Virus record (IMG/VR): IMGVR_UViG_3300036820_000001
Source: a virus
Length of the DNA: 64,000 nt
Reading direction: 5' to 3' (one strand)
This document shows positions 2,281 through 57,215 of this stretch, piece after piece. Each line of letters opens with the position of its first letter. Within the stretch, counting starts at the first letter, position 1. A program made the translations under genes and the position numbers. Below the pieces are notes generated by a model that did no database searches, was not told where the DNA came from, and saw only the letters and a list, made by a program, of their open reading frames with translations.

Positions 2281-2303
2281 GGGCATTGCGTCAAACTCAT
2301 CTA

Positions 2304-2310
2304 CGATAGG
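2304..2310 (+). promoter_or_regulatory. CGATAGG motif (family B) just after the terminator hairpin
   Basis: CTACGATAGGC is an 11-mer identical to the copy at 30411-30421. It lies 19 nt upstream of ATG 2329. Confidence 0.3.
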
Positions 2311-5900: not shown

Positions 5901-8653
5901 CCACCCCGCTGGCGCTGGGCGACACGTTCACCGACGTCACCAACGCTCGCGGCGGCCCGTTCACGGTCACGAGCATCACGCCGAGCGGCAGCAACGTCAT
6001 CGTCGGCTTCACTCCGACTGCATCGTCCTCGATCAGCACCGGCGACACGCTGCACGGCAACACCAACGGCAACATGTGGTTCAACAGCGCGAGCGGCTAC
6101 CAGCTGAGCACCTGGAGCGCTGGCGTCTGGACGGCTTACCAGTACGGTACCTCCGCCATAGCTGCAGGGGCGATCACCGCCACGCAGATCGCATCGAACA
6201 CGATCACGGCCGGGCAGATCCTGGCTGGCACGATCACTGGCTCCCTCATAGCTTCGGGCACCATCCAGGCGGGCAACATCCAGAGCGGCACCATCACTGC
6301 GACGCAGATCGCCGCCAACACGATCCTGGCCGCCAACCTGGTGAGCGGCATCGTCGTGGCCGGGATCGTGGACGCGACGACGATCACTGGCGCGAGCGTG
6401 GTCGCGGACGGCGCTGCCGGGCAGCTGCTGATCTACTCGGGCACGCCGCAGACCGGCAACCTGGTGGGCAGCTGGAGCGGGCAGGCTGGCACGGACGGCT
6501 TCAGCAACCCGTATCCGGCTGGCCTGCAGGTGCTGAGCGGCGCGATCACCGGCGTTGACCTCGACTCGACCAACATCACCAACTCGTCCATGGACAGCAC
6601 GAGCACGCTGACGGGCACGGCGATCACGCAGGCTCCGATCAGCGGCGGCTCCATGATCGAGACCGAGATAACGTTCGACTCCACGGACGGGTGGCTGCTG
6701 GCTTACACGAGCACCACCACCACGATCACCGAGAGCAGCAACGGCAACTACACGTTCACGCCGCCTGCTGGGGTGACCACCTGCAGCGTCACCTGCACTG
6801 GCGCTGGGGCTGGCGGAGGCGGCGGCACCACCAGCAACGGCGGCGAGTCTGGCGGGGGCGGCGAGTGCGCCAGCAACCCGAACCTGCCGGTCGTGCCGCT
6901 GGCGACGTACGGGTACGTGGTCGGCAACGGCGGCGGAGGCGGCTCGACCGGGAACGCGGGCGGCAACGGCGGCGACTCCTACTTCAACGGCGGCCCGTAC
7001 GCGCACGGCGGCCAGGCTGGCTACGGCGGCACGGGAGGCGCTGGCGGAACGGGATCGAGCGACCCTATCCACAAGAACGGCGGGGCTGGGCAGAACTCGG
7101 GGTCTGGCACGGGCGGCGCTGGAGGCGGCGGCTCGGCTGGCACGGTGAACGGCGGCGGGCAGGCGACTGTGCCCAGCGGCTCGACCGGATCGGCTGGCGG
7201 CGTGGCTGGCACTGGAGGCGGCGCGGCTGGAGGCCATGGCGGCAACGGGGCTGCGAACGGCAGCAACGGCAACTCGCCTGGTGCGGCTGGGGGTGGCGCT
7301 GGGGCGGCGTCTGGTGTGGTCGCGTTCTCGCAGACGTTCGACGCGACCAGCAGCAAGAGCTACTACGGGTCCGACGCTTCCAACGGTGACGCCAACGGCA
7401 CGAGGGCGAGCAACAGCACCATCTGGCAGGGCGGCGAGCTGGCGACGGGGGGCAGCGCCAACGGCACGCAGAAGGCTGCCTGGCTGTTCAACAGCAGCGC
7501 CATCCAGGCTGCGTGCGTGGGCGTCACCGTCTCGCAGATCAACTGCATCATGTCCAACCAGCACAGCTGGTACGGCAGCGGCATGACCGTGCAGCTGCGC
7601 GGCTGGCCTGCTTCCAAGGGCAGCAGCCTGCCGAGCACGTGGGACGGCACCGGGGCGACTGCGCTGACGCAGTTCAACGTGGACGAGGGCGAGCGCATCA
7701 CGGTGCCGCTCTACAGCAACACGGTCGCGCCGGTCCAGTTCCCGAACGGCACGCTGATCGGGTTCACGATCGGGCCTGGCCCGAGCAGCTGGGACCTGAG
7801 CTACTACGGCTACTTCAACGGCACGGGATCGGGCAGCGAGGCTCTGCAGCTGGAGGTCATCGGCACCACCGGGTCGGCTCCGACCCAGGCGGGCGCTGGC
7901 GCTGACGGCGAGGTCGTGATCACCTACACCAGCGGGTCCACGCTGGTGGCCGCGGTCAGCCCTGAGGCGTTCACCGACCAGTACAGCAACGCCATCGCCG
8001 CGGGCATGATGAGCACCGCCTACACCCTCATCGGCGGGTCGGCTCCGAGCACGCCTGCGAGCGGCAACGCGGCGCTGTGGGCGTCGAGTGCGGGCACGGC
8101 GTCGGTCACCAGCGACAGCGGGCAGACGGGCACGCTGGACTTCTCGCAGACCGACGCGGCCACGCACAGCAACAGCAACGCTGGCACGCAGCTGCTGACC
8201 AAGGCGTGGACGATCGACGCGAATGACGCCAGCGTCGGCACGGTCTACGAGATCTTGGTCCCGTTCAACGCGCAGTACGAGTCCGAGACGATCCAGCTGC
8301 GGCCTCAGCTGAACGGCTCCAATACCTCGGGTGACAGCGGCGGCGACATCACCGGCTCGGCGTCGTGGTCGGCTGGCGCTGGCCTGACGGGCTGGGCGCG
8401 GTTGTTCGTGCAGATCATCACCACTGGCACCGGCGGCACGGCCAACTTCTTCTGGGAGGCGCACCTGGGCCTCAACAGCACGCGCTCGACCGGCACCAAC
8501 ACCAACTTCATGAACCTGAGCGCTCAGAACACGGGCGTCACGTTCAACACCACCGTGTCCAACACGATATCGCTGGTGTCGATCTTCGGCGCGTCGGCCG
8601 CCAGCCAGTTCGTGACCGGCGAGGGAAGCACGTTCACACGGAAGGGTCCGTAA
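2948..8653 (+). CDS. minor tail protein (Tal-like N-terminus, fibre repeats, glycine-rich domain)
   Basis: 1901 aa. Four copies of the G-x-(L/M)-W-(Y/F)-(D/N)..N/Y-x-L/V-(Y/S)..G-x-W motif (nt ~5249-6145). I-x-A-x-x-I beta-helix-like heptads at 6150-6400. GGxGG-rich block at ~6800-7320. Confidence 0.85.
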   Translation: MSGEGWEVYVYEGPSASNGYGALLAVVPYWQSLSVAPLGGAQGSQGAGQITLSLQNPALNQPPYTPDTTPVLAKETLWQARRDGEVIFEFLNQTATRTTVSSDETRTVTVTGPDTSQVLNWAMAMPTGWTPSQTTFVSKTSTITQFETYAADGVTLLPDLELWNRTNSAAGPTSPTGFPNYGYNSDTNTQIGTGSVACIPSDGYVNVELNPGGSYLGGGTFDFSNSSFSCSVAPATLNADQADQGYTDVTNLTDFTEIIVKAGTGSGYASIALGYAQFYCQYQDVNGVVTTHVISPGRVGEDSGYNPATGTSTAYSSSTAQYWRLSCDVQSGGTLLFRWWTSPDDATWTLQWSLTEAAGLWDVTNVDVYLGGSYSTASAAYAQFTSPNGEVEVSPNMGPVYLSKPIFAVYQDLLFRAQDRGTLPFVSLSFDQLIDSGGQPWTDEWSIQVAVGSDLLSLIQNYGGAIDADWMMLPGYVLEVGNQGTLGTDYSGTIVFHEGESTQYGRTQDRSQLYNVAAAQDVDGQIHGYTNPSSITQWGQREIFVASAGTMDEASTAQTAQAAVQQYGQETDARVFQIPPAAPGKTPFTDFGIWDWVGIERGDFGAIEAQRVVGITYTIDQDGNESCELIIQTYRQVMIQYLQYLVNKLGGQAASTLGAFSLGTTGPIVGTSPVSLPSAPASSIGKATGASSAVGLTVASPLAAAVAASIQGTAPATAPAPGQPATTEVIPGSMLVSNSVPQTALSFTLATGALVTFSGTAPADPNVGDLWYDSSAGNQLYQWTGTSWQLYQFGASAIASGSLTTTQLSATAGITAGQVAFHATDIGGIQTYVQSTAPSGTIAAGSLWYDTASANEVYIYESGSWTSYAPGAGGVNFTAAQIGGVEVYVQGTAPSGTINTGSLWYNTSAGNQLYIYQSGSWTLYQFSSAAIAAGGVAASNAGFVAQSIGGTGVFVASSAPYDWSLTPSAGTTSTFTTAGSVLTSATPLALGDTFTDVTNARGGPFTVTSITPSGSNVIVGFTPTASSSISTGDTLHGNTNGNMWFNSASGYQLSTWSAGVWTAYQYGTSAIAAGAITATQIASNTITAGQILAGTITGSLIASGTIQAGNIQSGTITATQIAANTILAANLVSGIVVAGIVDATTITGASVVADGAAGQLLIYSGTPQTGNLVGSWSGQAGTDGFSNPYPAGLQVLSGAITGVDLDSTNITNSSMDSTSTLTGTAITQAPISGGSMIETEITFDSTDGWLLAYTSTTTTITESSNGNYTFTPPAGVTTCSVTCTGAGAGGGGGTTSNGGESGGGGECASNPNLPVVPLATYGYVVGNGGGGGSTGNAGGNGGDSYFNGGPYAHGGQAGYGGTGGAGGTGSSDPIHKNGGAGQNSGSGTGGAGGGGSAGTVNGGGQATVPSGSTGSAGGVAGTGGGAAGGHGGNGAANGSNGNSPGAAGGGAGAASGVVAFSQTFDATSSKSYYGSDASNGDANGTRASNSTIWQGGELATGGSANGTQKAAWLFNSSAIQAACVGVTVSQINCIMSNQHSWYGSGMTVQLRGWPASKGSSLPSTWDGTGATALTQFNVDEGERITVPLYSNTVAPVQFPNGTLIGFTIGPGPSSWDLSYYGYFNGTGSGSEALQLEVIGTTGSAPTQAGAGADGEVVITYTSGSTLVAAVSPEAFTDQYSNAIAAGMMSTAYTLIGGSAPSTPASGNAALWASSAGTASVTSDSGQTGTLDFSQTDAATHSNSNAGTQLLTKAWTIDANDASVGTVYEILVPFNAQYESETIQLRPQLNGSNTSGDSGGDITGSASWSAGAGLTGWARLFVQIITTGTGGTANFFWEAHLGLNSTRSTGTNTNFMNLSAQNTGVTFNTTVSNTISLVSIFGASAASQFVTGEGSTFTRKGP

Positions 8654-15772: not shown

Positions 15773-15873
15773 GCACGACCCGCGCCACCCTGGCTACTGC
15801 TGGTGCCGGTGGGCGTGGTCAGGCGGCAGATGGTCACCGGCGGCGCGGGACGCGGACAGCCCGGACGGGGTTG

Positions 15874-15880
15874 CCGATAG
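15874..15880 (+). promoter_or_regulatory. CCGATAG motif (family B), 8 nt upstream of ATG 15889
   Basis: CCGATAGGTA-cggcc-ATG. The 10-mer and the spacing are the same as at 31977. Confidence 0.35.
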
Positions 15881-15888
15881 GTACGGCC

Positions 15889-16911
15889 ATGACGACGATT
15901 AGCCCTCCGGTCCACCCGGAGCTTGACTACTCTGGGAGGCCGTTCGCGGCTCCCAACCCGGCGCTGCTCAGCAGGAGCTGGCGGCTGAAGCGCGGCGGGC
16001 TGCTCGCGCCGGCTGCGTACTCGGTCGTTACGACGGACCTGAGCACGTCGGCGGCGGTGCTGTTCGGGCAGGACTCCACGCAGGTGTCCGAGCTGACGGC
16101 CGGGCTGGCTGTCTACGCGGGGTACAACTTCGGCGGGTTCGCCAACTGGCAGGAGCTGGTGGCGCGGTTCCTCAAGAGCGGCGCGCGGCTGGTGTCGATC
16201 ACCCCGGCCGTGACCAGCGGGAGCGCGGTGCTGGACATCGAGCCCGGTAACGCGAGCCCATCGGCGGCTCCGTCCTTCCAGCGCATCCACTTCACCGGCG
16301 AGATCACCAGGCCGACGTACTACTGCTCGGCCGGGGACACGCAGGCGGTCATCAACGCGCTGAGCGGGGCCGGGTTCGCGCGGGACACGTACTACATCTG
16401 GAGCGCGCACTGGATTGGCGAGCACATCTGCTCCCCGGCCACGTGCGGCTACCCGCAGGCGGACGCCACCCAGTACGACAGCATCAGCGCGTACGATAGT
16501 GACGCGTTCTACGCGTACATGTTCGCCGCGGTCAAGCCGCCTGCTCCGCCGACGCCGCCCAAGCCACCGGCCCCGGCTGCCTGGAGCTACCCGGCTCCGC
16601 AGCACCTGACCGCGACCGGCGGGGAGACGAGCGTCCGGCTGAACTGGGTGCGCAACCTCGGCGGCCACCCCATCCCGGATCACTACGTCGTGTGGATCTA
16701 CAAGCCGGGGCCGACCACGGCGGCGAACCTGGCTGGCACCGGCACGTCCAAGTACCCGCGCAGCTCGATCGCCGGGGACGCGGTGACGTGGGAGGGCGGC
16801 GGCCTGGAGCGGAACGTCAAGGGCTACACGGTGCACCTGAGCGCGTCGGGCGAGGGCGGCGAGCACCTCGGCAAGGACGTGTTCGCTAAGGCCACGTTCG
16901 ACACCAACTAG
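15889..16911 (+). CDS. putative cell-wall hydrolase (glycoside-hydrolase-like TIM barrel) with Pro-rich linker and FN3-like domain
   Basis: VLDIEPGN, YYIWSAHW and ADATQY resemble GH25/DUF1906-type lysins. PPAPPTPPKPPAP linker. SVRLNW..YVVWIY is FN3-like. Start chosen at the ATG (a TTG at 15871 is possible). Confidence 0.55.
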   Translation: MTTISPPVHPELDYSGRPFAAPNPALLSRSWRLKRGGLLAPAAYSVVTTDLSTSAAVLFGQDSTQVSELTAGLAVYAGYNFGGFANWQELVARFLKSGARLVSITPAVTSGSAVLDIEPGNASPSAAPSFQRIHFTGEITRPTYYCSAGDTQAVINALSGAGFARDTYYIWSAHWIGEHICSPATCGYPQADATQYDSISAYDSDAFYAYMFAAVKPPAPPTPPKPPAPAAWSYPAPQHLTATGGETSVRLNWVRNLGGHPIPDHYVVWIYKPGPTTAANLAGTGTSKYPRSSIAGDAVTWEGGGLERNVKGYTVHLSASGEGGEHLGKDVFAKATFDTN

Positions 16912-17126
16912 CCGGTGTGCGAGTCCCTGCCCTTGGCTCCGTCCGACGACTGGATGACGGCCTTGAGCAGGGTCGGCCGGACGTACTGGTACCACTCCCA
17001 GCTGACGACGACGGCCGCGGGCATGCCGTGGTAGGTGATCAGCGAGGGCGACTCTGCGGCGGCGTCGCTGATGATCGTTCCGAGGTGGGCGCGGGCGGCT
17101 TCGGTGGTGTAGGTGTTCATGCTCAT
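16908..17126 (-). CDS. type II antitoxin, Phd/YefM family (no cognate toxin gene found)
   Basis: MSMNTYTTEAARAHLGTIISDAAAESPSLITYHGMPAAVVVSWEWYQ matches the Phd/YefM N-terminal fold pattern. High GC3 on the minus strand. Stop shares CTAG with the converging gene. Confidence 0.75.
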   Translation of the reverse strand: MSMNTYTTEAARAHLGTIISDAAAESPSLITYHGMPAAVVVSWEWYQYVRPTLLKAVIQSSDGAKGRDSHTG

Positions 17127-17145
17127 GGGCTACAGGCTAGCTTAA

Positions 17146-17165
17146 GGAAGTGCTGCCGTACTTCC
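17146..17165. promoter_or_regulatory. inverted repeat in divergent intergenic region
   Basis: GGAAGT-gctgccgt-ACTTCC between the antitoxin start (17126) and the + gene start (17204). Possible operator. Confidence 0.3.
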
Positions 17166-17170
17166 GATAG
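17164..17170 (+). promoter_or_regulatory. CCGATAG motif (family B), 33 nt upstream of ATG 17204
   Basis: CTTCCGATAGGG is a 12-mer identical to 56255-56266. Confidence 0.35.
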
Positions 17171-19590: not shown

Positions 19591-19651
19591 CCAGCTGGAA
19601 TACCTGACGGTCGTCAAGGGTTATACGTAGTGCAAGGCCGCGGGGGCGGCC
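19591..19651 (+). promoter_or_regulatory. family A promoter/operator element, copy 1, plus leader hairpin
   Basis: CCAGCTGGAATACCTGACGGTCGTCAAGGGTTATACGTAGTGCAAGG followed by the GGCCGC-gggg-GCGGCC hairpin. Starts right after the TAG at 19588-19590. Confidence 0.6.
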
Positions 19652-19665
19652 GGATCGGGGGAGAC

Positions 19666-19958: not shown

Positions 19959-20167
19959 CTGCTTACCTGACGGAAGAGGTCGCTGAGGTGCCTGTGCGCA
20001 AGGGCGCGCTCGTCACCGAGCTACCGCCGGACAACCCGGAGGTGTGCGACGCGTGCCAGGCACCGGCGGCGTTCCGCGTGACGGTGACGGCCGGCGACCT
20101 GACGTTCTGCGGCCATCACGCCCAGGCGCACGGGTTCACGCAGTCGCACGCCAGCTGGAATACCTGA
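19955..20167 (+). CDS. hypothetical protein (CDAC..FCGHH motif, DUF7455-like)
   Basis: ATG inside track ORF 19937. The stop lies inside family A copy 2. Confidence 0.55.
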   Translation: MTAYLTEEVAEVPVRKGALVTELPPDNPEVCDACQAPAAFRVTVTAGDLTFCGHHAQAHGFTQSHASWNT

Positions 20168-20197
20168 CGGTCGTCAGGCGTTACACTAGACGCAGGG
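20151..20197 (+). promoter_or_regulatory. family A promoter/operator element, copy 2
   Basis: CCAGCTGGAATACCTGACGGTCGTCAGGCGTTACACTAGACGCAGGG. Contains a perfect CTGACG-gt-CGTCAG inverted repeat. Confidence 0.6.
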
Positions 20198-20290
20198 GGC
20201 AACAGAACAGCGGAGAAACCGGCGGAATCGCAACCACAGCGCCACATAAGTCATAACCAGCGCAAAGTGGGACGCCCGCCGGAAGATGGC

Positions 20291-20405: not shown

Positions 20406-20717
20406 ATGCGGGATCTCGACATGTCCGACGTGGAAGGGGACGCGCAGCGGATGAGGGACGGGTGGACGACGTTCACGACGGTCAACGGGGTCCGGCACGC
20501 GGTGCCGCCGACCGGGCCGTGCGCGACGTGCGGGAAGGGGCACTGCCGGGAGAGCCACCAGGGGTCGTTCTGCGGCGGGTACCACTGCCCCAACTGCGAC
20601 GCGCGGTCGGAGGTGCCGTTCGACTGCCGGTGCGGGGCCGGGCGGGCCAACCACGTGCTCCTGATCCCCTGCGAGGTCAAAGAGTGCGACTGTCATCTAC
20701 CCAGCTGGAATACCTGA
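20406..20717 (+). CDS. Cys/His-rich (zinc-binding-like) protein
   Basis: 103-aa track ORF with several CxxC and CxC pairs. The stop lies inside family A copy 3. Confidence 0.6.
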   Translation: MRDLDMSDVEGDAQRMRDGWTTFTTVNGVRHAVPPTGPCATCGKGHCRESHQGSFCGGYHCPNCDARSEVPFDCRCGAGRANHVLLIPCEVKECDCHLPSWNT

Positions 20718-20763
20718 CGGTCGTCAAGGGTTATACATAGTGCAAGGGGGTCGCGGGGACCCC
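20701..20763 (+). promoter_or_regulatory. family A promoter/operator element, copy 3, plus leader hairpin
   Basis: CCAGCTGGAATACCTGACGGTCGTCAAGGGTTATACATAGTGCAAGG followed by the GGGGTC-gcggg-GACCCC hairpin. Confidence 0.6.
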
Positions 20764-20783
20764 AGCAGACGGGGGAAACAGAG

Positions 20784-21803: not shown

Positions 21804-21849
21804 CCTGGGGAATGCTTGACAGTCGTCAGGAGTTATAGATAGCGTAGGG
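21804..21849 (+). promoter_or_regulatory. family A promoter/operator element, copy 4 (diverged)
   Basis: CCTGGGGAATGCTTGACAGTCGTCAGGAGTTATAGATAGCGTAGGG. TTGACA, then an 18-nt spacer, then TAGCGT. Confidence 0.55.
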
Positions 21850-21871
21850 CGCAACAGAGAGGTGGGGGAAC

Positions 21872-23709: not shown

Positions 23710-23756
23710 CCAGCTGGAATACCTGACGGCCGTCAACCGTTATACCTAGTGCAAGG
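23710..23756 (+). promoter_or_regulatory. family A promoter/operator element, copy 5
   Basis: CCAGCTGGAATACCTGACGGCCGTCAACCGTTATACCTAGTGCAAGG. The core TGACGGCCGTCA is a perfect 12-bp palindrome. Confidence 0.6.
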
Positions 23757-23787
23757 CCGCGGGGGGTCCGGGGCCGGGGGAGGGAAA

Positions 23788-25900: not shown

Positions 25901-26476
25901 GTGCTCATCACCGACTCAGACCTCGGTCGCGGCCAGGAGGGCGACACCGAGGGCGCGGTTGACTCCGACGCTGCCACCGGGGCGGACACCGAGTCGCGTC
26001 AGATCATCGTGGCGGACGCGGACAGCGGCGTCGCCATCTCCGGGTCGGCCAGCGTCTTCGTCCTGGCTTACATCGCGTCGGACATCGACGGCGGCACCGG
26101 GGCCGAGGCCTGGAGCACGGCGGCGGGCAAGAGCGACGCGGACGCTGGCACCGGGGCGGACGTGCACGCGCTGCTGTACGCGCCAGCGGACGTGGACGCG
26201 GCCACCGGGGCTGAGGAGCAGTGGTACGCCATCGGGGTGTTCCCGTTCCCGCCACCGTGGCTGTTCGGCCCCAGTGGCGGGCTGCGCGTCGTCTGGCACT
26301 ACGAGATGCGGCGGGACATGGCCACGCTGGAGTTCCCGTCCGACTCGGACGCGGGCGGCGGGGCTGAGGGCAACGGGCCGACCGCCGTCGTCACGCAGCT
26401 GGTAGCCGGGGTCGAGGTGACCTGCGCCAAGGCCAGGGAGGCTGCGCTGGTGCTCCTGGTCGAGGAGATGGCGTGA
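25901..26476 (+). CDS. stand-alone copy of the C-terminal module of the following 1311-aa protein
   Basis: 191 aa that align along their whole length with aa ~1098-1311 of 26473..30408 (QEGDTE, DIDGGTGAE, LYAPA, FPPPWLF.PSGGLRVVWH). Confidence 0.65.
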   Translation: MLITDSDLGRGQEGDTEGAVDSDAATGADTESRQIIVADADSGVAISGSASVFVLAYIASDIDGGTGAEAWSTAAGKSDADAGTGADVHALLYAPADVDAATGAEEQWYAIGVFPFPPPWLFGPSGGLRVVWHYEMRRDMATLEFPSDSDAGGGAEGNGPTAVVTQLVAGVEVTCAKAREAALVLLVEEMA

Positions 26477-29400
26477 CAACCAGGGTCGGGGCGTTCCTCA
26501 ACCCGTCTGCGATGGGGTTCGCGGCGTTCACCGACTGGACGAGCGCGGCCAGCACATGGAGCGGCTGGACGGGCACCGGCACCCCCACGGTCACCCGGTC
26601 GTACCAGGGCACTGGACCCTGGACCATCGGCTCTGATATGACGGCGATGATCGCGGCCGGGTGCAAGATCCTCATCAGCATGACCCCGGCCTACAACCCG
26701 GTCAGCTCGACCGACTACGCCAATATCCAGTCGTTCATGGAGGCGCTGGTTGCGGCCGGGGCCGACTGCGACGTGTGCATCTGGTCGGAGCCGTACTACA
26801 ACGGGCTGACGTCGGCCCAGTACATCGCCGCGGTGCAGTACTACGGGCCTGCGATCCGGCCGTATTACCCAATGTCATTCCAGACCGCCAACGGGTCGGT
26901 GGTGCACAACAGCGAGGCTTCGTACTATCCCGGTGACGCTTACGTGGATAAGGTCAGCACGGACTACTACGCGTCTGGCTACGTGGCCGGGGACAGGCTC
27001 ACGACCATTGCTGCTGTCGCGTCGGGGGCGTCGCCGCCCAAGCCGTTCTGCCTGTGGGAGATCAACGGGTCACCGGCCAGCACAGGCCAGTCGCAGGCTA
27101 ATGTCACCGCGTTCTTCGAGTACGTGCAGTCGTTCATGCTGGGGCAGGTCGCGGCGCAGCTTCCGATCGGTGATATCTGCCTGTTTAACGGCGCGCCTGG
27201 TGAGAGCGTGTTCGGCTGCGACGCCATCGAGGAGGCGAGCTTCGAGGGCGGCAACGGCAACTGGCTGGCGGCAGGCAACACCTCGGTTGCCAACAGCTCT
27301 GCGCAGCATCATTCTGGTGCTGACTGCCTGGCGGTCACCTGCACGGGATCGACCCCGGCTCAGATCGCGTCGTGCATCGCCACCGCCTACGCCACCGAGA
27401 TGCTGCCGGTCGCGGTCGGGGACAGCGTTGACGGCGCTATATGGGTGCGCGCAGCGGCCACGTCGCGCACGGTCACCTGCCAGGTCCAGTGGTACACATC
27501 GACCGGCACGGAGATCAGCGTCACGGCTGGGACTGGCGTGGCGGACTCCACCTCGGCGTGGACGCAGGCTGTCATATCCGGGGCGGTCGCTCCGGCGACG
27601 GCGGCTTGGGCGCGCCTGTTCCCGGCTATCGCTAGCGCCGCCGCGAGCGAGGTCCACTACTTTGACGACGCCGAGCTGCGGGACGTCGAGGGGGACAACC
27701 CCAATAACACGACCACCATCGAGTTCGGCTGGGACTACCGGATCGCCTTGTTCCAAGCGCTGTACGAGGCGCTGAACACGCAGCCGCCGCTGGCGCAGAC
27801 GCCGGCGTCCCCTGGCAGGGCTGTCCCTGGCGCGGCCACTCCTGGGCTTATTCCGTCGTCGTCCAAGTCCAGCTCGGACAGCGGCACCGGGGCTGAGTCG
27901 CAGCGGATAGCCACCGAGCGCCTGTTCAGCTCGGACAGCGGCACCGGGGCTGAGACGGGGATTATCCCGCTGCCCAAGATGGCGACGCTGGTCGAGAACT
28001 TCAGGGCCAACGACTTCAGCGCGGTGTGGGGCAACTCGTACGGCACGTACAGCTGGTCACCGGGCAGCGCGGCCATCCAGTGCGACACGGGCTACAGCTC
28101 TGCCCTGGGCAGCACCGTCAACTACGACCTGACCAGCTCATCGATCTACGTGGGCATCGCTCCGTACATCGCGACCAGCTCAGCGACGTTCCTGTTCCTG
28201 ACCAGCAGCACCGGCAACGCGATTATGTTCGGGCAGACGGGCGTTAACCTGGCTGTCTACAAGGCAGTCGCTGGCGTCCAGACGTCGCTATTCACGACCA
28301 CGTACAACGCGACTAGCCATGCCTGGTGGCGGATCAGGGAGTCCGCGGGCACGGTGTTCTTCGACACCGCGCCGGACGGGGCGACATGGACCAACCAGTA
28401 CAGCACGGCGGACACCACGTTCTCTGGGACGGTCCTCACCGCGCTGCAGGTTGACATCCAGCCTGGCGACTACGGGTCGGACCCGACTGGCACCACGTAC
28501 CTGTACGCGGTCAACTCGCCCAGGCTGCAAGCATCGACGGACGCGGGCACCGGGGCGGAGACTTACGTCCTGACGGCTCGCACGCCGAGCGCGGACAGCG
28601 GCACCGGGGCTGACGCGCAGAGCATGACCGCCAGGGTGCCCAGCGCTGACGCTGGCACTGGTCTGGAGGCGCAGAGCCTGATCGCCAAGGTGCCCAACCC
28701 GGACAGCGGCACCGGGGCCGAGACGCAGACGGTCATCGAGTCCCTGGCCAGCGCCGACGCTGGCACTGGCTTGGAGGCGCTGGCGCTGACGGCTAGCCTG
28801 GCCAGCGCAGACGCTGGCACCGGGGCCGAGCTGCAGGCGCTGACGATTCCCAGCGCAGACGCGGGCGCTGGTACGGAGACGCAGGCGCTTACGGCCAGGC
28901 TGCCCAGTTCCGACGCGGGCACCGGTGCGGACGCGCAGAGCGTCCGGCTGCCCAGCTCTGATATTGGTACCGGGGCCGAGCTGCAGGTGCTCACGGCGAG
29001 GGTGCCCAGCTCTGATAGCGGTACTGGGGCCGAGCAGCAGGGCATCGCGCTGGCCAGCTCGGACAGCGGCACTGGGGCTGAGGCCCAGGCTGTGGCTGCC
29101 ACCGCGCTCGTGTCCGACGTGGACAGCGGCGTGGGCGTTGACACGGAGAGTGTCAGCAGCGGCTCGATGCTCGTCAGCGACACGGACGCGAGCTTCACCA
29201 GTTACGAGGTGGAGTCGGGCCTCGGGCGCATCCCCAGCTCGGACGCGGCCACTGGAGCTGAGGTCCTGGCGATTCGCGTCGTCGTGTTCGACGGCGGCAC
29301 CGGGTCCGAGTCGCAGTCGTCTCGGGCGTCGATGTCCAACGCGGACTCCGGCACCGGCGCGGACGCTCAGGTCCTGACGCTGGCGTCGTCGGACACTGGC

Positions 29401-30408
29401 ACCGGGTCTGAGCTGCAGGCCACTGCCGACTCCATATCCGATGTGGACGCCGGGACCGGCGCGGACGTGCAGGTTCTCCGGCTGGCCGACGTGGACGCTG
29501 GCACGGGTGCGGACACTGGCCTGCTGACGGCGCTGGCGCGAGACACGGACGCGGGGCTGGGCGCGGACGCGGATACGCTGATGGCGCTGGAGACTGGCGC
29601 TGACGCCGGGCTGGGCGTGGACGCTGGCTTGCTGCGCGCGCTGGAGTCCGACCTTGACGCCGGGCTGGGCGCGGACGCGGCCACGCTGCCGGCTGTGCGG
29701 GTCAGGGACGCCGACGCGGGTACCGGTACGGAGACGCAGTTCTACGAGCCGTCCGGCACGATGTTCATCGTCAGCGCCGACTCGGGGCGCGTGCAGGAGG
29801 GCGACACTGAGGCCGCGGTCGGCTCGGACTTCGCCACCGGGGCGGACGCGCAGTCCCCCATGGTCGTGGTCCCGCCACCGGGCGCGGACCTGGCTACGGG
29901 GGCTGAGTCGGGCAGCTTCGTCGTCCTGGTCAACGCGCTGGCGGACATCGACGGCGGGACCGGGGCTGAGTCGTGGGCCACTGCGGGAGGCAGGGCTGAC
30001 CTCGATAGCGGCGATGGCGCGGACTCGCAGCTGTCGCTTTACGCACCGGCTGGCGCGGACGGCGGCACTGGCGGCGAGCCCGGCGCTTACCAGCTGGGGA
30101 TCTGGGCGTTCCCGCCGCCGTGGCTGTTCAATCCGAGCGGCGGGCTGCGGGTCGTCTGGCACGAGGGGCAGCCGGATGAGGTGGTGGTCCGCGAGTGGGA
30201 GGGCGAGTTCACCCGCCACCTGGACGCGGCGCAGCGGTTCTACGAGATCATCAGGGACTCGGACTCGCTGGAGTTCGTGTCGGACGCCGACGCGGCGGCT
30301 GGGAGCGACGTGAGCGGGCGGACGGCCAACGTCGCGGTGTGCGTGTTCGGGCCTGATATGGTGCAGCTGGTCAGCGGCGTGCGGATCGTCTGCGGGGTGC
30401 CCAGCTAG
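26473..30408 (+). CDS. fibre/depolymerase-like protein: GH26-like hydrolase + CBM4_9-like + LamG-like + S-x-D-x-G-T-G repeats + C-module
   Basis: YYPGDAYVDKVSTDYY and LWEINGS are GH26-like. FEGGNGNW..VHYFDDAEL is CBM-like. HAWWRIRESAGTVFFDTAPDGATW is LamG-like. About 30 repeat cores. Confidence 0.85.
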   Translation: MTTRVGAFLNPSAMGFAAFTDWTSAASTWSGWTGTGTPTVTRSYQGTGPWTIGSDMTAMIAAGCKILISMTPAYNPVSSTDYANIQSFMEALVAAGADCDVCIWSEPYYNGLTSAQYIAAVQYYGPAIRPYYPMSFQTANGSVVHNSEASYYPGDAYVDKVSTDYYASGYVAGDRLTTIAAVASGASPPKPFCLWEINGSPASTGQSQANVTAFFEYVQSFMLGQVAAQLPIGDICLFNGAPGESVFGCDAIEEASFEGGNGNWLAAGNTSVANSSAQHHSGADCLAVTCTGSTPAQIASCIATAYATEMLPVAVGDSVDGAIWVRAAATSRTVTCQVQWYTSTGTEISVTAGTGVADSTSAWTQAVISGAVAPATAAWARLFPAIASAAASEVHYFDDAELRDVEGDNPNNTTTIEFGWDYRIALFQALYEALNTQPPLAQTPASPGRAVPGAATPGLIPSSSKSSSDSGTGAESQRIATERLFSSDSGTGAETGIIPLPKMATLVENFRANDFSAVWGNSYGTYSWSPGSAAIQCDTGYSSALGSTVNYDLTSSSIYVGIAPYIATSSATFLFLTSSTGNAIMFGQTGVNLAVYKAVAGVQTSLFTTTYNATSHAWWRIRESAGTVFFDTAPDGATWTNQYSTADTTFSGTVLTALQVDIQPGDYGSDPTGTTYLYAVNSPRLQASTDAGTGAETYVLTARTPSADSGTGADAQSMTARVPSADAGTGLEAQSLIAKVPNPDSGTGAETQTVIESLASADAGTGLEALALTASLASADAGTGAELQALTIPSADAGAGTETQALTARLPSSDAGTGADAQSVRLPSSDIGTGAELQVLTARVPSSDSGTGAEQQGIALASSDSGTGAEAQAVAATALVSDVDSGVGVDTESVSSGSMLVSDTDASFTSYEVESGLGRIPSSDAATGAEVLAIRVVVFDGGTGSESQSSRASMSNADSGTGADAQVLTLASSDTGTGSELQATADSISDVDAGTGADVQVLRLADVDAGTGADTGLLTALARDTDAGLGADADTLMALETGADAGLGVDAGLLRALESDLDAGLGADAATLPAVRVRDADAGTGTETQFYEPSGTMFIVSADSGRVQEGDTEAAVGSDFATGADAQSPMVVVPPPGADLATGAESGSFVVLVNALADIDGGTGAESWATAGGRADLDSGDGADSQLSLYAPAGADGGTGGEPGAYQLGIWAFPPPWLFNPSGGLRVVWHEGQPDEVVVREWEGEFTRHLDAAQRFYEIIRDSDSLEFVSDADAAAGSDVSGRTANVAVCVFGPDMVQLVSGVRIVCGVPS
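28531..29735 (+). repeat. in-frame tandem array of S-x-D-x-G-T-G-x-E/D units (approximate bounds)
   Basis: Periodic GAC-GCN-GGC-ACC-GGG-GCN-GAG cores every ~39-48 nt. Imperfect and coding. Confidence 0.8.
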
Positions 30409-30414
30409 TGGCTA

Positions 30415-30421
30415 CGATAGG
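30415..30421 (+). promoter_or_regulatory. CGATAGG motif (family B), 8 nt upstream of ATG 30429
   Basis: CTACGATAGGC-tgagat-ATG in the 20-nt gap after the 1311-aa ORF. Confidence 0.35.
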
Positions 30422-30428
30422 CTGAGAT

Positions 30429-31373: not shown

Positions 31374-31987
31374 TGACTCGTCTGGTATGTATGTATGGTG
31401 GTGACTATCCGTTCGAGTCGGATCTGGACCCGAGGGTGAAGGCGGCGCTGGAGAAGTACGCTCCCCAGGTGGGGTTGGAGGTCGAGTGGGTTGACACAAA
31501 GCCCAGTAGACAGATATACGCTGATGAGATGGAAAAGCGGTGGAACGGCACCGAGGACCTGATTATCGTTGAGCAGGACAAAGAGATATTCATGGATACT
31601 CTGCCTAGTTTGCTAGGATGCCGTGAGCCGTGGTGCGGGTACACGTTCTGGCAGAACCCGGAGCCGCACACTAACTTGGTGATCGGCGGGTTCGGGGTGA
31701 CTAAGTTCAGCGCGCAAGTGCAGACGTGGTTCCCGGTGTCGGCGTTCCGTGGTAAGGATCAGGTTGGCATTGACCGGAGGTTCTACGATTACCTCATCAA
31801 GAATCACCGGTTTGGCATCCACTTGCACGGCAGCGTGGTGCATCACCATGTCTACGAGCCGCGGCCGGAGTCGGTGCGCCGTTATGTCCGTATGTTGCGC
31901 GAGCGTGGAGTGATCGCTCCGTCTCTCGCGCCACCGGCGCTAGACCCCGGTCTGCTGCCTGGTAGCTATCGTCTGCCCGATAGGTAG
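31373..31987 (+). CDS. possible GT-A-type glycosyltransferase
   Basis: TGATG-coupled. DLIIVEQDKEIFMDTLPSLL resembles the GT2 DxD-region pattern. Low-confidence product call. Confidence 0.6.
   Translation: MTRLVCMYGGDYPFESDLDPRVKAALEKYAPQVGLEVEWVDTKPSRQIYADEMEKRWNGTEDLIIVEQDKEIFMDTLPSLLGCREPWCGYTFWQNPEPHTNLVIGGFGVTKFSAQVQTWFPVSAFRGKDQVGIDRRFYDYLIKNHRFGIHLHGSVVHHHVYEPRPESVRRYVRMLRERGVIAPSLAPPALDPGLLPGSYRLPDR
31977..31983 (+). promoter_or_regulatory. CCGATAG motif (family B), 8 nt upstream of ATG 31992
   Basis: CCGATAGGTA-gaggc-ATG. Overlaps the last codons of the upstream gene. Confidence 0.35.
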
Positions 31988-31991
31988 AGGC

Positions 31992-32303
31992 ATGGCGATC
32001 TTCACCTCTGGCATCACGCAGGCGTACGTGACCAACAACGCCCAGGCCAAGCTGGCGGCGCTGCGCAATGCCCTGGAGGATGTGGAGAACTTCTACGAGT
32101 GGCTGTCGGCGTACGCAGAGTCTGACCTGGAGACGATGGGGTTCACCACGGCTGACGCGACGGCGATATTCACGGCGTTCGCTGACGCCAACGCGCTGTA
32201 CCAGATCTACACCACCGGGCTGCCGCCGGGGACGTACCCGCAGCCGGCCAGTGCCTACGTGTACGCGGCGAGCCAGCGGGTGATCATCGGGCCGCTGAGC
32301 TAG
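31992..32303 (+). CDS. hypothetical protein, paralog of 8653..8946
   Basis: 103 aa. Shares the LETMGFTTADATAIFTAFADANAL-type segment with the 97-aa ORF at 8653. Confidence 0.65.
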   Translation: MAIFTSGITQAYVTNNAQAKLAALRNALEDVENFYEWLSAYAESDLETMGFTTADATAIFTAFADANALYQIYTTGLPPGTYPQPASAYVYAASQRVIIGPLS

Positions 32304-32329
32304 GGCTTCCAATCTGACGGGAGGCCGCC

Positions 32330-36763: not shown

Positions 36764-36780
36764 CACCCGATTGCAGAGAC

Positions 36781-37095: not shown

Positions 37096-37217
37096 CAGTT
37101 GCCAGAGGTGTGCCTATCGGCGTACCATCCGTTTAACCGTGCGTGCACGAGCAGCCTGTTGATGCCGCGGCGCGGCCTTCCCCCAGAGCCACCGCATGCA
37201 CGTCAGGAGTACGTTTA

Positions 37218-43613: not shown

Positions 43614-43811
43614 ATGGGCATGTCATGGCGTCAGGCGCGCGAGGCGCTGACGGACTCCGGGCGCGGAGCGAACGAGGCGCAGGACATTCTTGACGACCTG
43701 GCTCACTTCCCCGATAGGTCGTTCAGCTACGCCGCGGACGGCGGCGTGCGCTGGCTGTCGTACGCGGGCCTGGAAGCCGGGCAGCCGGTCTACGCGTCGG
43801 CCGGGCGCTGA
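43614..43811 (+). CDS. hypothetical protein
   Basis: Track ORF. Confidence 0.5.
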   Translation: MGMSWRQAREALTDSGRGANEAQDILDDLAHFPDRSFSYAADGGVRWLSYAGLEAGQPVYASAGR

Positions 43812-44417: not shown

Positions 44418-44427
44418 GGCGGTGGTC

Positions 44428-44553: not shown

Positions 44554-46328
44554 CGACGGCGCTGGACCCGAGGCGGATGCGGCCGGACATGATGCAGGGC
44601 GTCGCCAACGTCGTGCAGTCCAGCTACGATATAGAGCTGCCGCACATGGAGCCGTGGAACGACCGGCCCTGCCCGGCCCACGCCGAGCTGACGGCCGGGT
44701 GCAGGCGGTGCGGGGTGAAGCCACGGCGGCACCAGCGCATCGGGATCACCTGGCTGTACCTGACGCCGCGGGCGGGGCTGTTCGACTCGACCGGGCTGGG
44801 CAAGACGGTGCAGTGCGCGGGGCTGCTGTCGCTGCTGCTGGGGAACGGCGAGATCGGCACCTTCGCCCAGCACTCGCGCAAGGGCCTGATCATCGCGCGG
44901 GCGGCCACCATCGCGCAGTGGCAGGCCGAGCTGGCGCGGATGGTCCCCGACCTCATCACCATCGCCGTCACCGGCACGGCGGCCGAGCGCGGGCGCAAGC
45001 TGGCGCGCGATGAGTGGGAGGTGGCGCTGATCGGCCCGGAGATGCTGGCGTCCAAGGTGGCCAAGGGAGCCGACCAGCTGTCGCATCATGACATCGGCAC
45101 GGTCATCTGCGACGACATCGACTGCCTGCGCAACGCCAACAAAACCTCGCGTACGATAAAGGAAATCTGCGACAAGGCCGACCGGGTGGTGATCGCCACC
45201 GCGACGCCGCTGGACAAGAAACTGACCCAGCTGTACGACCTCGGCACGATCCTCGGCTGGCGCAGCTCGCTCGGCTCGCGGCAGGAGTTCCAGCACCGCT
45301 ACGTCAACATGGAGCGGGTCTACTACACGCCCAAGCTGAAGCCGACGCGGTGCCGGTGGTGCAAGGCGTTCCTGGTGGCCGACCACGCCAACAAGCTGTG
45401 GGTGGACTCCAAGACAAAGGCGTCCGGGCCGTGCCCGGCGCGGCCGACCGACGCGCACTTCCCGCTGAGCAGGATCACGCCCGGCCCAAAGTTCACCGAG
45501 CAGGAGAAGGGCGTCAACCCGGAGCGGGTGGCCGAGTTCCGGCAGCGCATCGCGCCGCTGGTGCTGCGGCGGACGGCCGACCAGTGTGATGACATCCAGA
45601 TGCCGGGCGTTATCGCCTCGCAGGTCTGGCTGACGCTGGGGCCTGAGCAGGCGCTGCGGTACATGGAGCTGCGCAAGGGCGTCCTCACGCGGATGGACCA
45701 GACCGGGAACAAGGTCAGCACCACCGAGGCGCAGGCGGCGTTCATGCGGGCGCGGCAGATCGTGAGCGGGCTGGCCACCCTCGATACTGGCAGGACCGGT
45801 GAGTCGGCCAAGCTGGATTGGGTCACGGAGGCGCTGAGCGGCGATCTGAGCGGTGAGCCGGTCGTGGTCTACAACTACTTCAGGCCGACGCTGGCGGACC
45901 TGTCAGCGCGCCTGACGGCGGCCGGGATCGCCAACGTGCGGATCTGGGGGGAGCAGCACGCGAGCGAGCAGGCGCACGCCATCGCTGCGTTCAACTCCGG
46001 GGCGGCCAACGTCATCCTCATCACTGACGCGGGCGGGATGGGGCTGAACCTGCAGAAGGCTCGGCGGCTGGTCATCTGCGACCCGCCGGTCAGCGCCGGG
46101 CGGCAGAGCCAGCTCATCGGGCGGATCAAGCGGGACTCCAGTGCGCACGAGACGGTCTACGTGCAGCAGCTGCTGTGCGAGGACGCGCCGGTGGACAAGG
46201 CCATGGCCGAGATGCTGGCGGGCGAGGCGGTGATGTCCGCCGCGGTGCTGGACGCGGGCACCCTGGCCAGCGAGTGGGACTGGGCCGACGACCCGGAGTG
46301 GATGATGCGGGCGGTGGCCGGTGCCTGA
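44550..46328 (+). CDS. SNF2-family (DEAD/DEAH-like) helicase/ATPase
   Basis: Motifs DSTGLGKTVQ (I), VICDDID (II), ATATPL (III), GGMGLNLQ (V) and QLIGRIKR (VI). Confidence 0.85.
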   Translation: MTTALDPRRMRPDMMQGVANVVQSSYDIELPHMEPWNDRPCPAHAELTAGCRRCGVKPRRHQRIGITWLYLTPRAGLFDSTGLGKTVQCAGLLSLLLGNGEIGTFAQHSRKGLIIARAATIAQWQAELARMVPDLITIAVTGTAAERGRKLARDEWEVALIGPEMLASKVAKGADQLSHHDIGTVICDDIDCLRNANKTSRTIKEICDKADRVVIATATPLDKKLTQLYDLGTILGWRSSLGSRQEFQHRYVNMERVYYTPKLKPTRCRWCKAFLVADHANKLWVDSKTKASGPCPARPTDAHFPLSRITPGPKFTEQEKGVNPERVAEFRQRIAPLVLRRTADQCDDIQMPGVIASQVWLTLGPEQALRYMELRKGVLTRMDQTGNKVSTTEAQAAFMRARQIVSGLATLDTGRTGESAKLDWVTEALSGDLSGEPVVVYNYFRPTLADLSARLTAAGIANVRIWGEQHASEQAHAIAAFNSGAANVILITDAGGMGLNLQKARRLVICDPPVSAGRQSQLIGRIKRDSSAHETVYVQQLLCEDAPVDKAMAEMLAGEAVMSAAVLDAGTLASEWDWADDPEWMMRAVAGA

Positions 46329-47034
46329 CGAGAAGCCCATCGACCCGCCGATCGACCAGCTGATGCAGCAGCTCATCGTGCAGGCGCGGGCTGTCGCGTG
46401 GCGGCACTGGCACGGAGCGCCGTACGTGCTGGAGTTCGAGGAGCTGGTCAGCCTGGCTTACAAGGGGCTGACCGAGGCGGCGGCGCGGTGGGAGGTCTAC
46501 TGCGAGAAGAACGGCTACGACCCCTCCTGCACGAGGTACTTCAGCGCGTACTGCCTGCGTAGGATGAACGGGAGCATCCTCGACTACATGCGCGGCCAGG
46601 ACTGGGTGTCGCGCACCGTCCGCAACCGCGCTCGCGCGCTGCGGGAGGCGGGCCAGGACCAGGGCGCGTCGGAGGCGCAGCTGTCGGAGGGCAGCGGGCT
46701 GACGCGCGAGCAGGTGAACGACACCCTGGCCGCCATGAACAGGCGGCCGGTCGGGTTCGACCCCATCGAGCACGACGTCACCGACGCGGCGGACACCGAG
46801 TCGCACGCGGTGGTGGACGACCTGCTGGCGGGGGCGGTGCAGGTCATGGAGGGCATGCCGCTGGCGACGCAGTTCAGCATGTGCCTGACCTTCTACTACG
46901 GGATGACAGTGCGGCAGGCGGCTGAGACGATGGGGATGGCACCGGAAGAGGTGACGGTGCTGCAGCAGCAGGGCGTGCTGGCGGTGCACGAGGCGCTGGC
47001 GCGGGCGGCGAGGGGCCGGGATGAATTACCCTGA
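46321..47034 (+). CDS. sigma-70 family sigma factor (group 3, SigF/FliA/WhiG-like)
   Basis: Region 2: LAYKGLTEAAARWE..YFSAYCLRRMNGSILDYMRGQDWVSRTVR. Region 4 HTH: LTFYYGMTVRQAAETMGMAPEEVTVLQQQGV. Confidence 0.75.
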   Translation: MPDEKPIDPPIDQLMQQLIVQARAVAWRHWHGAPYVLEFEELVSLAYKGLTEAAARWEVYCEKNGYDPSCTRYFSAYCLRRMNGSILDYMRGQDWVSRTVRNRARALREAGQDQGASEAQLSEGSGLTREQVNDTLAAMNRRPVGFDPIEHDVTDAADTESHAVVDDLLAGAVQVMEGMPLATQFSMCLTFYYGMTVRQAAETMGMAPEEVTVLQQQGVLAVHEALARAARGRDELP

Positions 47035-56091: not shown

Positions 56092-56264
56092 GCCGGGAGC
56101 TTCAGTGGCAGGTGCACGCCACATCCCCCACCGGCGCGGTCATGGTATTCGGGGTGCCCGCGCCGGATGGCGACCAGGCCATGGCGCTGGCCATGGAGCG
56201 GCTGCCGTTTGATCCGAGCGCTATCAGCGTCACGCAGATACCCGACCGCCCGCGCTTCCGATAG
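56088..56264 (+). CDS. hypothetical protein (58 aa)
   Basis: GTGA overlap start. The stop TAG lies inside the CCGATAG motif. Confidence 0.4.
   Translation: MSRELQWQVHATSPTGAVMVFGVPAPDGDQAMALAMERLPFDPSAISVTQIPDRPRFR
56258..56264 (+). promoter_or_regulatory. CCGATAG motif (family B), 33 nt upstream of ATG 56298
   Basis: CTTCCGATAGGG is a 12-mer identical to 17161-17172. Confidence 0.35.
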
Positions 56265-56297: not shown

Positions 56298-57215
56298 ATG
56301 ACGTCAATGATCGATGACGGTGTTCTGGCTCCAGCCAGCACGGACGAGATGTTCAGGCAGTATTACGGCTACGTCAGGCGGATCGTGGCCAACACTCCGG
56401 CGATCCCGGCGCAGGACGCCGAGGACGTGGCCATGGAGATCATGACCCGGCTGGTGGAGCGCGACGTGCTCGGGATGTTCGACCCCCAGATGAAGTTCGC
56501 GCACGAGGGCCAGCAGATGCAGGCCAAGTTCCGGACCTTCCTCACGGCGCAGGTGGCGCTGTACGTCAAGGGGCAGCGGGACCGGCTGGGCAGGCAGCGC
56601 AAGCATGAGGCGGTCGTGCTGGACGCGCCGGTGCCGGGGGCGGAGGGCACCCACCTGCTGGACCTGTTCGGCGGGGCTGAGGACGACATGGCCGACCTGG
56701 ACGCGGCTGAGTGGATCAGGCAGGCGCGTGGGTTCCTGGCCACTGTCCCGCCGCGGTCGGCGCAGGACCGGTGCGACCTGGTGCGGCTGTTTGACGCGCT
56801 GATTGACCAGATGTCCCGCACGGGGCGGGTGAGCACGTCGGAGACGGCGCAGTCGCTCGGCGTCACCTCGGCTGTGACCAGCCGGTGGCTGCAGTGGATG
56901 CGGCAGAACCTCCGGCAGCAGGCGGTGTTGTCGGCGCGGGTCACGATCGACGGCGAGACGTACACTATGGCGCACTGCCGCCAGGCGGCGGCGCTGCTGC
57001 GGGCGCGCAAGGGGGCTCCGCACGTCAGGCAGCCGCTGGCGGCGGCGGGTAACCCGCTGGCGCTGATGAACTACCACAAGATCGCCCGGTACGAGCGGGC
57101 CACCTATCCGGAGTGCGAGGTGCCCCCCATGCACAAGGGGAAGGGCCACTACGCGCCGCACGTGCTGAACGCTGTGGTGCACCACCTGGAGCGCGTGGCA
57201 CCGGCTCCCGCGTGA
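56298..57215 (+). CDS. second sigma-70-family (ECF-like) protein with C-terminal extension
   Basis: Region 2-like: FRQYYGYVRRIV..DAEDVAMEIMTRLVE..FRTFLTAQVALYVKGQRDR. Region 4-like HTH: VSTSETAQSLGVTSAVTSRWLQWMRQNL. An ATG at 56307 is an alternative start. Confidence 0.55.
   Translation: MTSMIDDGVLAPASTDEMFRQYYGYVRRIVANTPAIPAQDAEDVAMEIMTRLVERDVLGMFDPQMKFAHEGQQMQAKFRTFLTAQVALYVKGQRDRLGRQRKHEAVVLDAPVPGAEGTHLLDLFGGAEDDMADLDAAEWIRQARGFLATVPPRSAQDRCDLVRLFDALIDQMSRTGRVSTSETAQSLGVTSAVTSRWLQWMRQNLRQQAVLSARVTIDGETYTMAHCRQAAALLRARKGAPHVRQPLAAAGNPLALMNYHKIARYERATYPECEVPPMHKGKGHYAPHVLNAVVHHLERVAPAPA

Follow-up and report, generated by a model that had tools for sequence, protein, structure and literature searches.

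What reads the short word at positions 15,874 to 15,880 of the virus record IMGVR_UViG_3300036820_000001, which stands just ahead of a start codon and recurs before other genes of the same DNA? The window (the whole 64,000-nucleotide stretch analysed here, from a source contig of 139.6 kb) had been described in an earlier note as carrying a (C/A)CGATAG(G) motif at fixed distances from start codons, with TAGGnn as a -10 hexamer that one of two phage sigma factors could read. Comparison with related phages suggests instead, with a probability of roughly two in three, that the boxes, which have the form (N)CCGATA(G/A), are the composite -10 elements of sigma-28-class (FliA/SigD/WhiG) promoters. 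This estimate covers the promoter class, not the phage's own sigma factor as its reader. Promoter firing, the exact start sites and the identity of the reading sigma factor are what we infer from the sequence, and they are worded as predictions throughout.

Occurrence and conservation of the box

The box is over-represented in the window, which has a G+C content of 68% and carries nearly all of its genes on the plus strand. The 8-mer CCGATAGG was observed six times, against 1.27 in dinucleotide shuffles (none of 100 reached the observed count) and 0.74 expected under a third-order Markov model (none of 300); [CA]CGATAGG was observed nine times against 1.27 under the same Markov model (again 0/300). 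The excess that the earlier note had estimated roughly from composition thus holds against a Markov background. It weakens under a fifth-order model, where 6 of 300 runs (2%) reach the observed count. Eight of the nine [CA]CGATAGG copies are intergenic or lie on the last codons of a gene, and seven of these eight are co-oriented with the genes. The forms present in the window are GCCGATAG (three copies), T/CCCGATAG (four), ACGATAG (two) and GCCGATAT (one). As had been described, GATAG is followed by 8 nt and a start codon at 15889, 30429 and 31992 and by 33 nt and a start codon at 1179, 17204 and 56298, the 10-, 11- and 12-mers are shared between sites, and a minus-strand copy lies at 37113-37121. 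Copies that had escaped the earlier list are 43711 (CCGATAGG), 36766 (CCCGATTG-N7-GTG) and 52196-52203 on the minus strand (GCCGATAT).

These counts bear on a simple alternative, a chance excess of an A+T-containing word in a GC-rich genome whose intergenic DNA is richer in A+T. The bare words CGATAG and GATAG show no enrichment in the window, and CCGATAGG ranks only 70th of 17,154 8-mers by surprise, behind words from the protein repeats of the fibre genes. Two distances would also each be hit by at least three copies in about 2% of random placements. However, the motif recurs independently in eight related loci and is invariant at orthologous sites within diverged spacers, and we therefore set chance aside as highly improbable.

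The comparison draws on relatives at 57-76% protein identity, found solely in soil metagenomes and Logan assemblies. To gather the related loci (numbered with the prefix L), we used homologues of two proteins, here named by their start positions: 17204 and the sigma-like 56298. A megablast of 15-19 kb against GenBank phages gave no DNA-level match, and the nearest phage protein match, the helicase of Microbacterium phage Magritte, is 29% identical. IMG/VR scans with the 15889, 18016 and 1179 proteins, used singly, returned zero relatives. Homologues of the 15889 protein were uninformative on the box and were dropped, because they belong to non-syntenic phages and the gene is translationally coupled to its neighbour. 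The IMG/VR pattern CTTAAGG-N15-17-CCGATAG gave at least 119 matches; since a 17204 homologue was absent from all of them, we take them as chance matches in a huge collection.

Plus-strand 7-mers were ranked by their enrichment in intergenic DNA across 125 kb from eight related loci that have public gene calls and do not include the window. CCGATAG came first, with 10 of its 13 copies in 7.8% of positions (p=1.9e-9), and CCCGATA third, both above most Shine-Dalgarno (SD) words. We then aligned nine upstream regions of the 17204 family, whose proteins share 57-72% amino acid identity. The spacers have diverged, and the invariant blocks are only TT..G of TTAAGG, CCGATA and a GGAGG ribosome-binding site. 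TAAG is present in seven of the nine orthologues and stands at N16 from the 8-mer, shifted to N15 in L089 and N17 in L090; the L084 orthologue has TACA in its place. A non-orthologous site, 12996 in L086, has CTAAGG likewise at N16. Orthologues of the second sigma-like gene carry CCGATA(G/A) upstream in four of five cases, 77 to about 100 nt from the start, and exact GCCGATAA occurs at orthologous sites in L090 and L093. We regard the location between genes, together with the recurrence in related phages, as the decisive evidence that the motif is real.

Proposed promoter register and the sigma-factor genes

The alignment also fixes the register. Among the 17204 orthologues the bases after TAG are G, G, A, T, T, T, C, C and A, whereas the preceding CC and the CGA never vary. 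TAGGnn is therefore not the conserved unit, and the TANNNT-type register of the earlier note was wrong. What stands of its promoter element is an element that is strand-specific, intergenic, conserved at orthologous sites and held 15-17 nt from TAAG in one gene family, with (N)CCGATA(G/A) as its conserved core.

This core resembles the promoters of the sigma-28 class. The consensus common to actinobacterial WhiG has TAAA at -35 and GCCGATAA at -10 (PMC8325347); a second description gives T(A/C)AA, N16 and GCCGATAA, with the central CGA as the most conserved part (PMC12871210). Across the class the two elements are 15-16 bp apart. The phage core CCGATA likewise has an invariant CGA, with TAAG or TACA at a distance of 15-17 bp in one gene family and at one other site. 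The same genome has a sigma-28-family gene, and the spacing from box to start fits the -15 to -8 numbering of such promoters. The form GCCGATAT in the window is also a B. subtilis sigma-D -10 form.

Read in the older register, TAGGnn would be an actinobacterial sigma-A-type -10 (TANNNT with an extended -10 G, cGaTAGnnn) served by the host primary sigma factor, and the 8-nt class would be leaderless. Leaderless mRNAs of actinobacteria have a TANNNT -10 a few nt before ATG or GTG, and G-N-TA fits the actinobacterial extended -10 pattern. True TANNNT hexamers are found at some copies (TAGGCT at 30418, TAGACT at 1143 and TAGAAT in L086), and TANNNT-N5-7-ATG before a Phd-like gene suggests that leaderless starts are in use in the same phages. 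However, most copies end the hexamer in A, G or C, the bases past TAG are free among orthologues, and TANNNT leaves the invariant upstream CC and CGA unexplained. TTAAGG and TTGACG would lie 19-20 bp from TAGNNN, too far for a -35, and only 5 nt would separate the hexamer from the ATG. We consider the sigma-A-type reading unlikely.

The Phd-like gene itself is a small divergent gene of the Phd/YefM-antitoxin type (16908-17126, minus strand; Pfam E=1.2e-6) that adjoins the 17204 family in the window and in L004, L005, L086, L084, L089 and L090. A TANNNT hexamer (TAGCCT, TAATCT or TAGAAT) lies 5-7 nt upstream of its start, which has no SD, and abuts the palindrome CCTTAAGG (17127-17150). From its sequence the gene is predicted to be a textbook case of the canonical leaderless arrangement.

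The window encodes two sigma-like proteins, and they differ in kind. The product of 46321-47034 matches the NCBIfam profile FliA_WhiG (TIGR02479) with E=2.3e-15, its residues 15-217 covering profile positions 2-214 of 224, and Pfam Sigma70_r2 and r4 match below threshold. It is a divergent FliA/WhiG relative that lies outside the family by NCBI's rule. Aligned with the E. coli FliA structure 6pmi_F (E=3.7e-7), ILDYMRGQDWVSRTVR stands opposite MLDELRSRDWVPRSVR, with LD..R and DWV.R.VR conserved, and the residues aligned to D81, R84 and R91 of E. coli FliA (region 2.4/3.0) are identical. In the 2009 work of Koo and colleagues, D81 and R84 are reported to have roles in reading the composite -10. 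In the P. aeruginosa open complex, the residue equivalent to R91 makes contact with the GC of the extended -10 (PMC12784957).

The second protein, encoded by 56307-57215, has an AlphaFold model with a predicted local distance difference test (pLDDT) score of 84.8. Extracytoplasmic-function (ECF) sigma factors, among them SigE, SigH, SigL, AlgU, SigW and BldN, make up the four best PDB matches of this model and most of the top 20, although these matches are weak (E from 2e-3 to 0.3, low template-modelling score); TIGR02937 matches with E=5e-4, and Pfam gave no match. By predicted fold, the product is probably an ECF-like sigma factor. Its gene most likely starts at 56307 and not at 56298, which places it 42 nt from its box, since the SD of 56307 is better (-8.2 against -3.9 kcal/mol) and 56307 is the start chosen by the public gene caller (302 aa). 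In three relatives, a conserved hairpin, GCCCGGTCTTCTTGGCCGGAGCCGGGC, separates the box from the SD of this sigma gene (L092 9955-9985, L093 2690-2720 and L002 about 5990-6020). It shows a compensatory change in L002 (GCCTGG...CCAGGC), is absent from the shorter leader of the window, and may be a regulatory leader structure.

Of the two phage sigma factors that the earlier note had put forward as possible readers, the FliA/WhiG-like product of 46321-47034 is the natural candidate. A reading of the box as the -10 of the ECF-like sigma factor was dropped because 46321-47034 is FliA/WhiG-like and the box matches the sigma-28 class.

Box-to-start distances and predicted transcripts

The distances from box to start codon are bimodal. 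In the window the gap between box and start codon is 8 nt at 15889, 30429 and 31992 and 7 nt at 36781; in the relatives it is 9 nt at L084 20034, 8 nt at L086 13011 and 9 nt at L089 2221. The proposed 8-nt class is thus a class of 7-9 nt at seven sites in four phages, whereas the well-supported remainder lies 31-90 nt from the start with an SD of its own. SD pairing in the short class is weak, -2.0 to -5.8 kcal/mol against a median of -8.2. The fixed distance of 33 nt proved to be a coincidence, since the 17204 orthologues have 33, 36, 39, 41, 44, 38, 40, 38 and 43 nt and the ECF-like sigma gene, counted from 56307, has 42 nt (77-90 in its relatives).

In the open complex of P. aeruginosa fliC the -10 box spans -15 to -8 (PMC12784957). 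With this numbering, +1 would coincide with the start codon or precede it by 1-2 nt where the gap measures 7-9 nt. From this geometry it is plausible that the short class yields leaderless mRNAs or mRNAs with a leader of 1-2 nt. The leaderless transcripts proposed earlier are in this respect compatible with the spacing, in a different register; the short fixed leader of 33 nt fell with its distance class.

A box so close to start codons could also act in translation. In Cluster K mycobacteriophages (PMC3203893) and Cluster EF Microbacterium phages (PMC7302621), a start-associated sequence (SAS) has been described; this 13-mer, GGGATAGGAGCCC, contains an AGGAG core and is found invariably 3-7 bp from the start, before non-structural genes only (PMC3203893). 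The box would then be an element recognised by RNA or protein that promotes initiation or re-initiation. It shares GATAGG with the SAS, is asymmetric, has a single orientation and stands directly before some starts, and the TAG stop of the upstream gene can fall in it (56258, L084 20018 and L089 2206), as in the SAS (PMC3203893). The L084 box runs into a good SD (GATAGGAG). However, GATAGG is all that the two have in common, AGGAG is missing from most copies, and the genes of the 8-nt class pair weakly with the ribosome. The box has 7-8 conserved bp, distances of up to 90 nt and separate SDs, so it falls outside the definition of the SAS. The best-conserved sites lie 33-90 nt from the start with a separate GGAGG, and most sites precede tail, lysin and fibre genes, whereas the SAS is limited to non-structural genes. 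An SAS-like role is improbable. A reading of the AGG as nothing but an SD is excluded at the long-distance sites because there the box lies 33-90 nt upstream of a gene with its own strong GGAGG.

Alternatively, the box could have no relation to sigma recognition and serve as the operator of a phage DNA-binding regulator or as a site of RNA processing. Actinobacteriophages commonly carry short, conserved intergenic repeats without an assigned role (PMC7302621). The box forms one inverted pair (31966-31983), minus-strand copies lie in gene-free gaps, and the palindrome CCTTAAGG stands beside a box. Yet the box is asymmetric and nearly always co-oriented with the downstream gene, an operator leaves the tight class of 7-9 nt unexplained, and both the sequence and the spacing to the -35 coincide with those of a known sigma class whose gene shares the genome. 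We judge such an origin to have a small chance only. The inverted repeat at 31966-31983 consists of CTATCG (31966-31971), N6 and CGATAG, so that the box at 31978 pairs with a minus-strand copy; it could be two back-to-back sites or an RNA hairpin of 6-7 bp at the end of the 31373-31987 gene.

Several observations weigh against the sigma-28 class as the identity of the boxes. A TAAA-like -35 is missing at most sites; TAAG is found in the 17204 family and at L086 12996, and at no other site in the window. Exact GCCGATAA is absent from the window, where the phage form ends in G rather than A and its first G is often T, C or A. A mismatch-tolerant scan of the GC-rich window with the canonical consensus showed no enrichment (16 matches against 14.4 expected), nor did the -10 alone with up to one mismatch (31 against 30.5), and the match to the consensus therefore rests on the specific word. 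TTAAGG belongs to the palindrome CCTTAAGG beside the divergent Phd/YefM-like gene and could be an operator instead of a -35. The candidate sigma factor scores 57 bits against a curated NCBIfam cut-off of 189.6, and in L003, which has an orthologue of this sigma-28-like gene, the ECF-like sigma gene lacks an upstream box. The split between the two distance classes is blurred by weak CGATAG words at 63976 and its orthologues, which stand 10-12 nt before a start, and minus-strand copies at 37121 in the window and 12160 in L088 have no gene to serve. As to TTAAGG, L090 has kept TTAAGG-N17-CCGATAA although the divergent Phd-like gene has moved away. This favours a role as -35, without proving it, and speaks against TTAAGG as solely the operator of that gene.

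If the boxes are sigma-28-class promoters, RNA polymerase with a sigma-28-family factor would recognise the box, aided at some promoters by a TAAG/TAAA-like -35 15-17 bp upstream. The reader would most plausibly be the phage's own 46321-47034 product or, failing that, a host WhiG/FliA homologue. Transcription would start about 7-8 nt after the box, giving a leaderless mRNA or a leader of 1-2 nt where the box is 7-9 nt from the start (15889, 30429, 31992 and 36781) and a normal leader with its own SD where it is 31-90 nt away (1179, 17204 and 56307). Likely transcription units would be 1179 onward; the tail genes past the 2246-2281 hairpin; the lysin-like gene; the 17204/18016 pair; the 30429 and 31992/32330 fibre genes; 36781; and the 56307 block with the ECF-like sigma, clamp loader and polymerase. 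The 44019-48537 block, which includes the sigma-28-like gene, is a probable further unit, and its TTGACG at N15 may allow entry by a host sigma factor. The link to late-type genes made earlier thus holds in part; the box also heads the helicase/sigma operon (43711) and the sigma/clamp-loader/DNA-polymerase block (56258).

Such a system would differ from known ones in several respects. The predicted targets are structural, lysis and replication genes of the phage and not flagellar, pilus or sporulation genes, the phage sigma factor is very diverged, and several promoters would yield leaderless mRNAs. For phage 7-11, a motif with a TGATGT core was inferred from conserved intergenic motifs and assigned to promoters for a phage-encoded sigma factor (PMC4331800). 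There, too, intergenic comparison revealed a short core upstream of middle and late genes and of the phage sigma gene; unlike that core, which belongs to another sigma type, the box described here can be tied to a well-characterised sigma class. The short-distance sites resemble actinobacterial leaderless mRNAs in having the element 7-9 nt before the start and a weak or absent SD, with the canonical case at the Phd-like gene. They differ from them in having a sigma-28-type box in place of TANNNT, and a leader of 1-2 nt is as likely as none.

Features of the window and a second element

The boxes, their partner element and the two sigma-factor genes are listed in Table 1.

Table 1. Positions of the boxes, a -35-like partner and the sigma-factor genes in the window
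Feature	Coordinates	Strand	Context
GCCGATAG box, 7/8 to GCCGATAA	1138..1145	+	33 nt before ATG 1179; the gene has its own SD, GGGAAGGG
ACGATAGG box	2303..2310	+	directly after a strong hairpin; heads the 2455/2948 tail-protein genes
GCCGATAG box	15873..15880	+	8 nt before ATG 15889 (lysin-like gene, weak SD); predicted +1 at 15888/15889
TTAAGG, -35-like partner	17142..17147	+	TAAG at N16 from the 8-mer; kept in 7/9 orthologous regions
TCCGATAG box	17163..17170	+	33 nt before ATG 17204; CCGATA invariant in 9 orthologous intergenic regions
ACGATAGG box	30414..30421	+	8 nt before ATG 30429
CCCGATAG box	31976..31983	+	8 nt before ATG 31992
Degenerate CCCGATTG	36766..36773	+	7 nt before GTG 36781; orthologous site in L084 is CCCGATAG-N9-GTG
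GCCGATAGG	37113..37121	-	intergenic gap; no minus-strand gene downstream
TTGACG-N15-CCGATAG(G), CCGATAGG copy at 43711	43690..43717	+	ahead of the tightly packed 44019-48537 block with the sigma-28-like gene
FliA/WhiG-family (sigma-28-like) sigma gene	46321..47034	+	candidate reader of the box
GCCGATAT, 7/8 to GCCGATAA	52196..52203	-	directly upstream of minus-strand gene 51405-52190
TCCGATAG box	56257..56264	+	42 nt before ATG 56307, ECF-like sigma gene
ECF-like sigma gene	56307..57215	+	predicted fold; itself downstream of a box

The hairpin before the 2304 box, which had been noted as a terminator, is real (2246-2281, -40.7 kcal/mol, z=-4.3). The element at 43690-43717 may lie inside a weak open reading frame of 65 aa. 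Only two minus-strand genes of the window are well supported, and one of them, 51405-52190, has its box just upstream on the same strand, within a divergent control region of 420 bp (52125-52547). On the minus strand of this region GCCGATAT faces the gene, and on the plus strand the -35-like hexamers TTGACA (about 52174) and TTGACG (about 52434) lie ahead of 52488 and 52548. Weaker (A/T)CGATAG words stand 10-12 nt before an ATG and are conserved in four genomes, at 63976-63981 in the window, L003 15743, L092 17377 and L093 10740. The 63976 copy is possibly within the reading frame that begins at 63726, and it may be a promoter box or an SD-containing junction.

A second promoter-like element of about 40 bp, GGAAT(A/G)NNTGAC(G/A)NNCGTNANNNGTTATACNTAGTGCAGG, lies upstream of small genes. 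In the window it occurs at 19597-19660, 20157-20215, 20707-20770, 21809-21870, 23716-23785 and 53394-53419, and it is strongly conserved in the relatives (L002 2447 and 3739; L088 14086, 15908 and 16884; L090 9422; L092 4595 and 7153). Its GGAAT-N18-GTT(ATAC) form was observed six times against 0.22 expected. The consensus of the actinobacterial ECF factors SigH/SigR is GGAAT-N18-19-GTT (PMC10012870). The second element fits this consensus and also holds TTGACA/CTGACG; as a speculation, it may be the target of the ECF-like 56307-57215 sigma factor or of host SigH.

More tentatively, phages of this actinobacteria type, of about 140 kb, may run a two-sigma programme of their own, a proposal that we regard as possible and still doubtful. 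The sigma-28/WhiG-like factor would read CCGATAG, with several of the promoters yielding leaderless late mRNAs and one driving the ECF-like gene, and the ECF-like factor would read GGAAT-N18-GTT(ATAC) ahead of small genes that form clusters. Within such a programme the G-ending box might insulate the phage promoters from host WhiG/FliA. Phage-encoded sigma factors that have a promoter class of their own are already established, as are sigma-28 promoters and leaderless mRNAs in actinobacteria, and the lineage would be the new part. If the boxes are indeed sigma-28-class promoters, they would give a readable transcription map (units, probably leaderless genes and the driving sigma factor) for a phage lineage that is large, uncultured and mostly without protein annotation, and would mean that a sigma specificity of the flagellar and sporulation type has been re-used by a phage for structural and lysis genes.

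Other genes of the window encode a Dit-like tail protein (249-1130), a tail protein of 1901 aa, two giant fibre-like proteins rich in repeats, and a replication module with an SNF2 helicase, DnaB, a clamp-loader-like protein and a family-A DNA polymerase. The 15889-16911 product is lysin-like, with a peptidoglycan-binding domain in most of its homologues (PG_binding_1 in many relatives). Rfam and tRNA scans for known RNAs were empty, and a generic scan of 1-20 kb for sigma-70 promoters and terminators gave nothing above background.

The giant proteins, at 26473-30408 (1311 aa) and 32330-36763 (1477 aa), contain dozens of degenerate repeats of about 18 aa (..SSDSGTGAE..), which are the source of the most over-represented k-mers of the window; similar repeats occur in many distantly related loci. 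Over 30400-33700 the G+C content falls to 61-63%, and G+C at third codon positions (GC3) is lower over 30429-31373, 31373-31987 and the start of 32330-36763. The drop in G+C and GC3 suggests that 30400-33700 is a fibre/host-range module that was acquired recently. Of the three 8-nt boxes, two lie at gene junctions of this low-G+C region. Finally, CTCTGATA occurs seven times, always on the plus strand (2745, 26631, 28956, 29010, 49741, 53764 and 61143), against an expectation of about 0.3-0.5, and its copies apparently lie mostly within coding regions.

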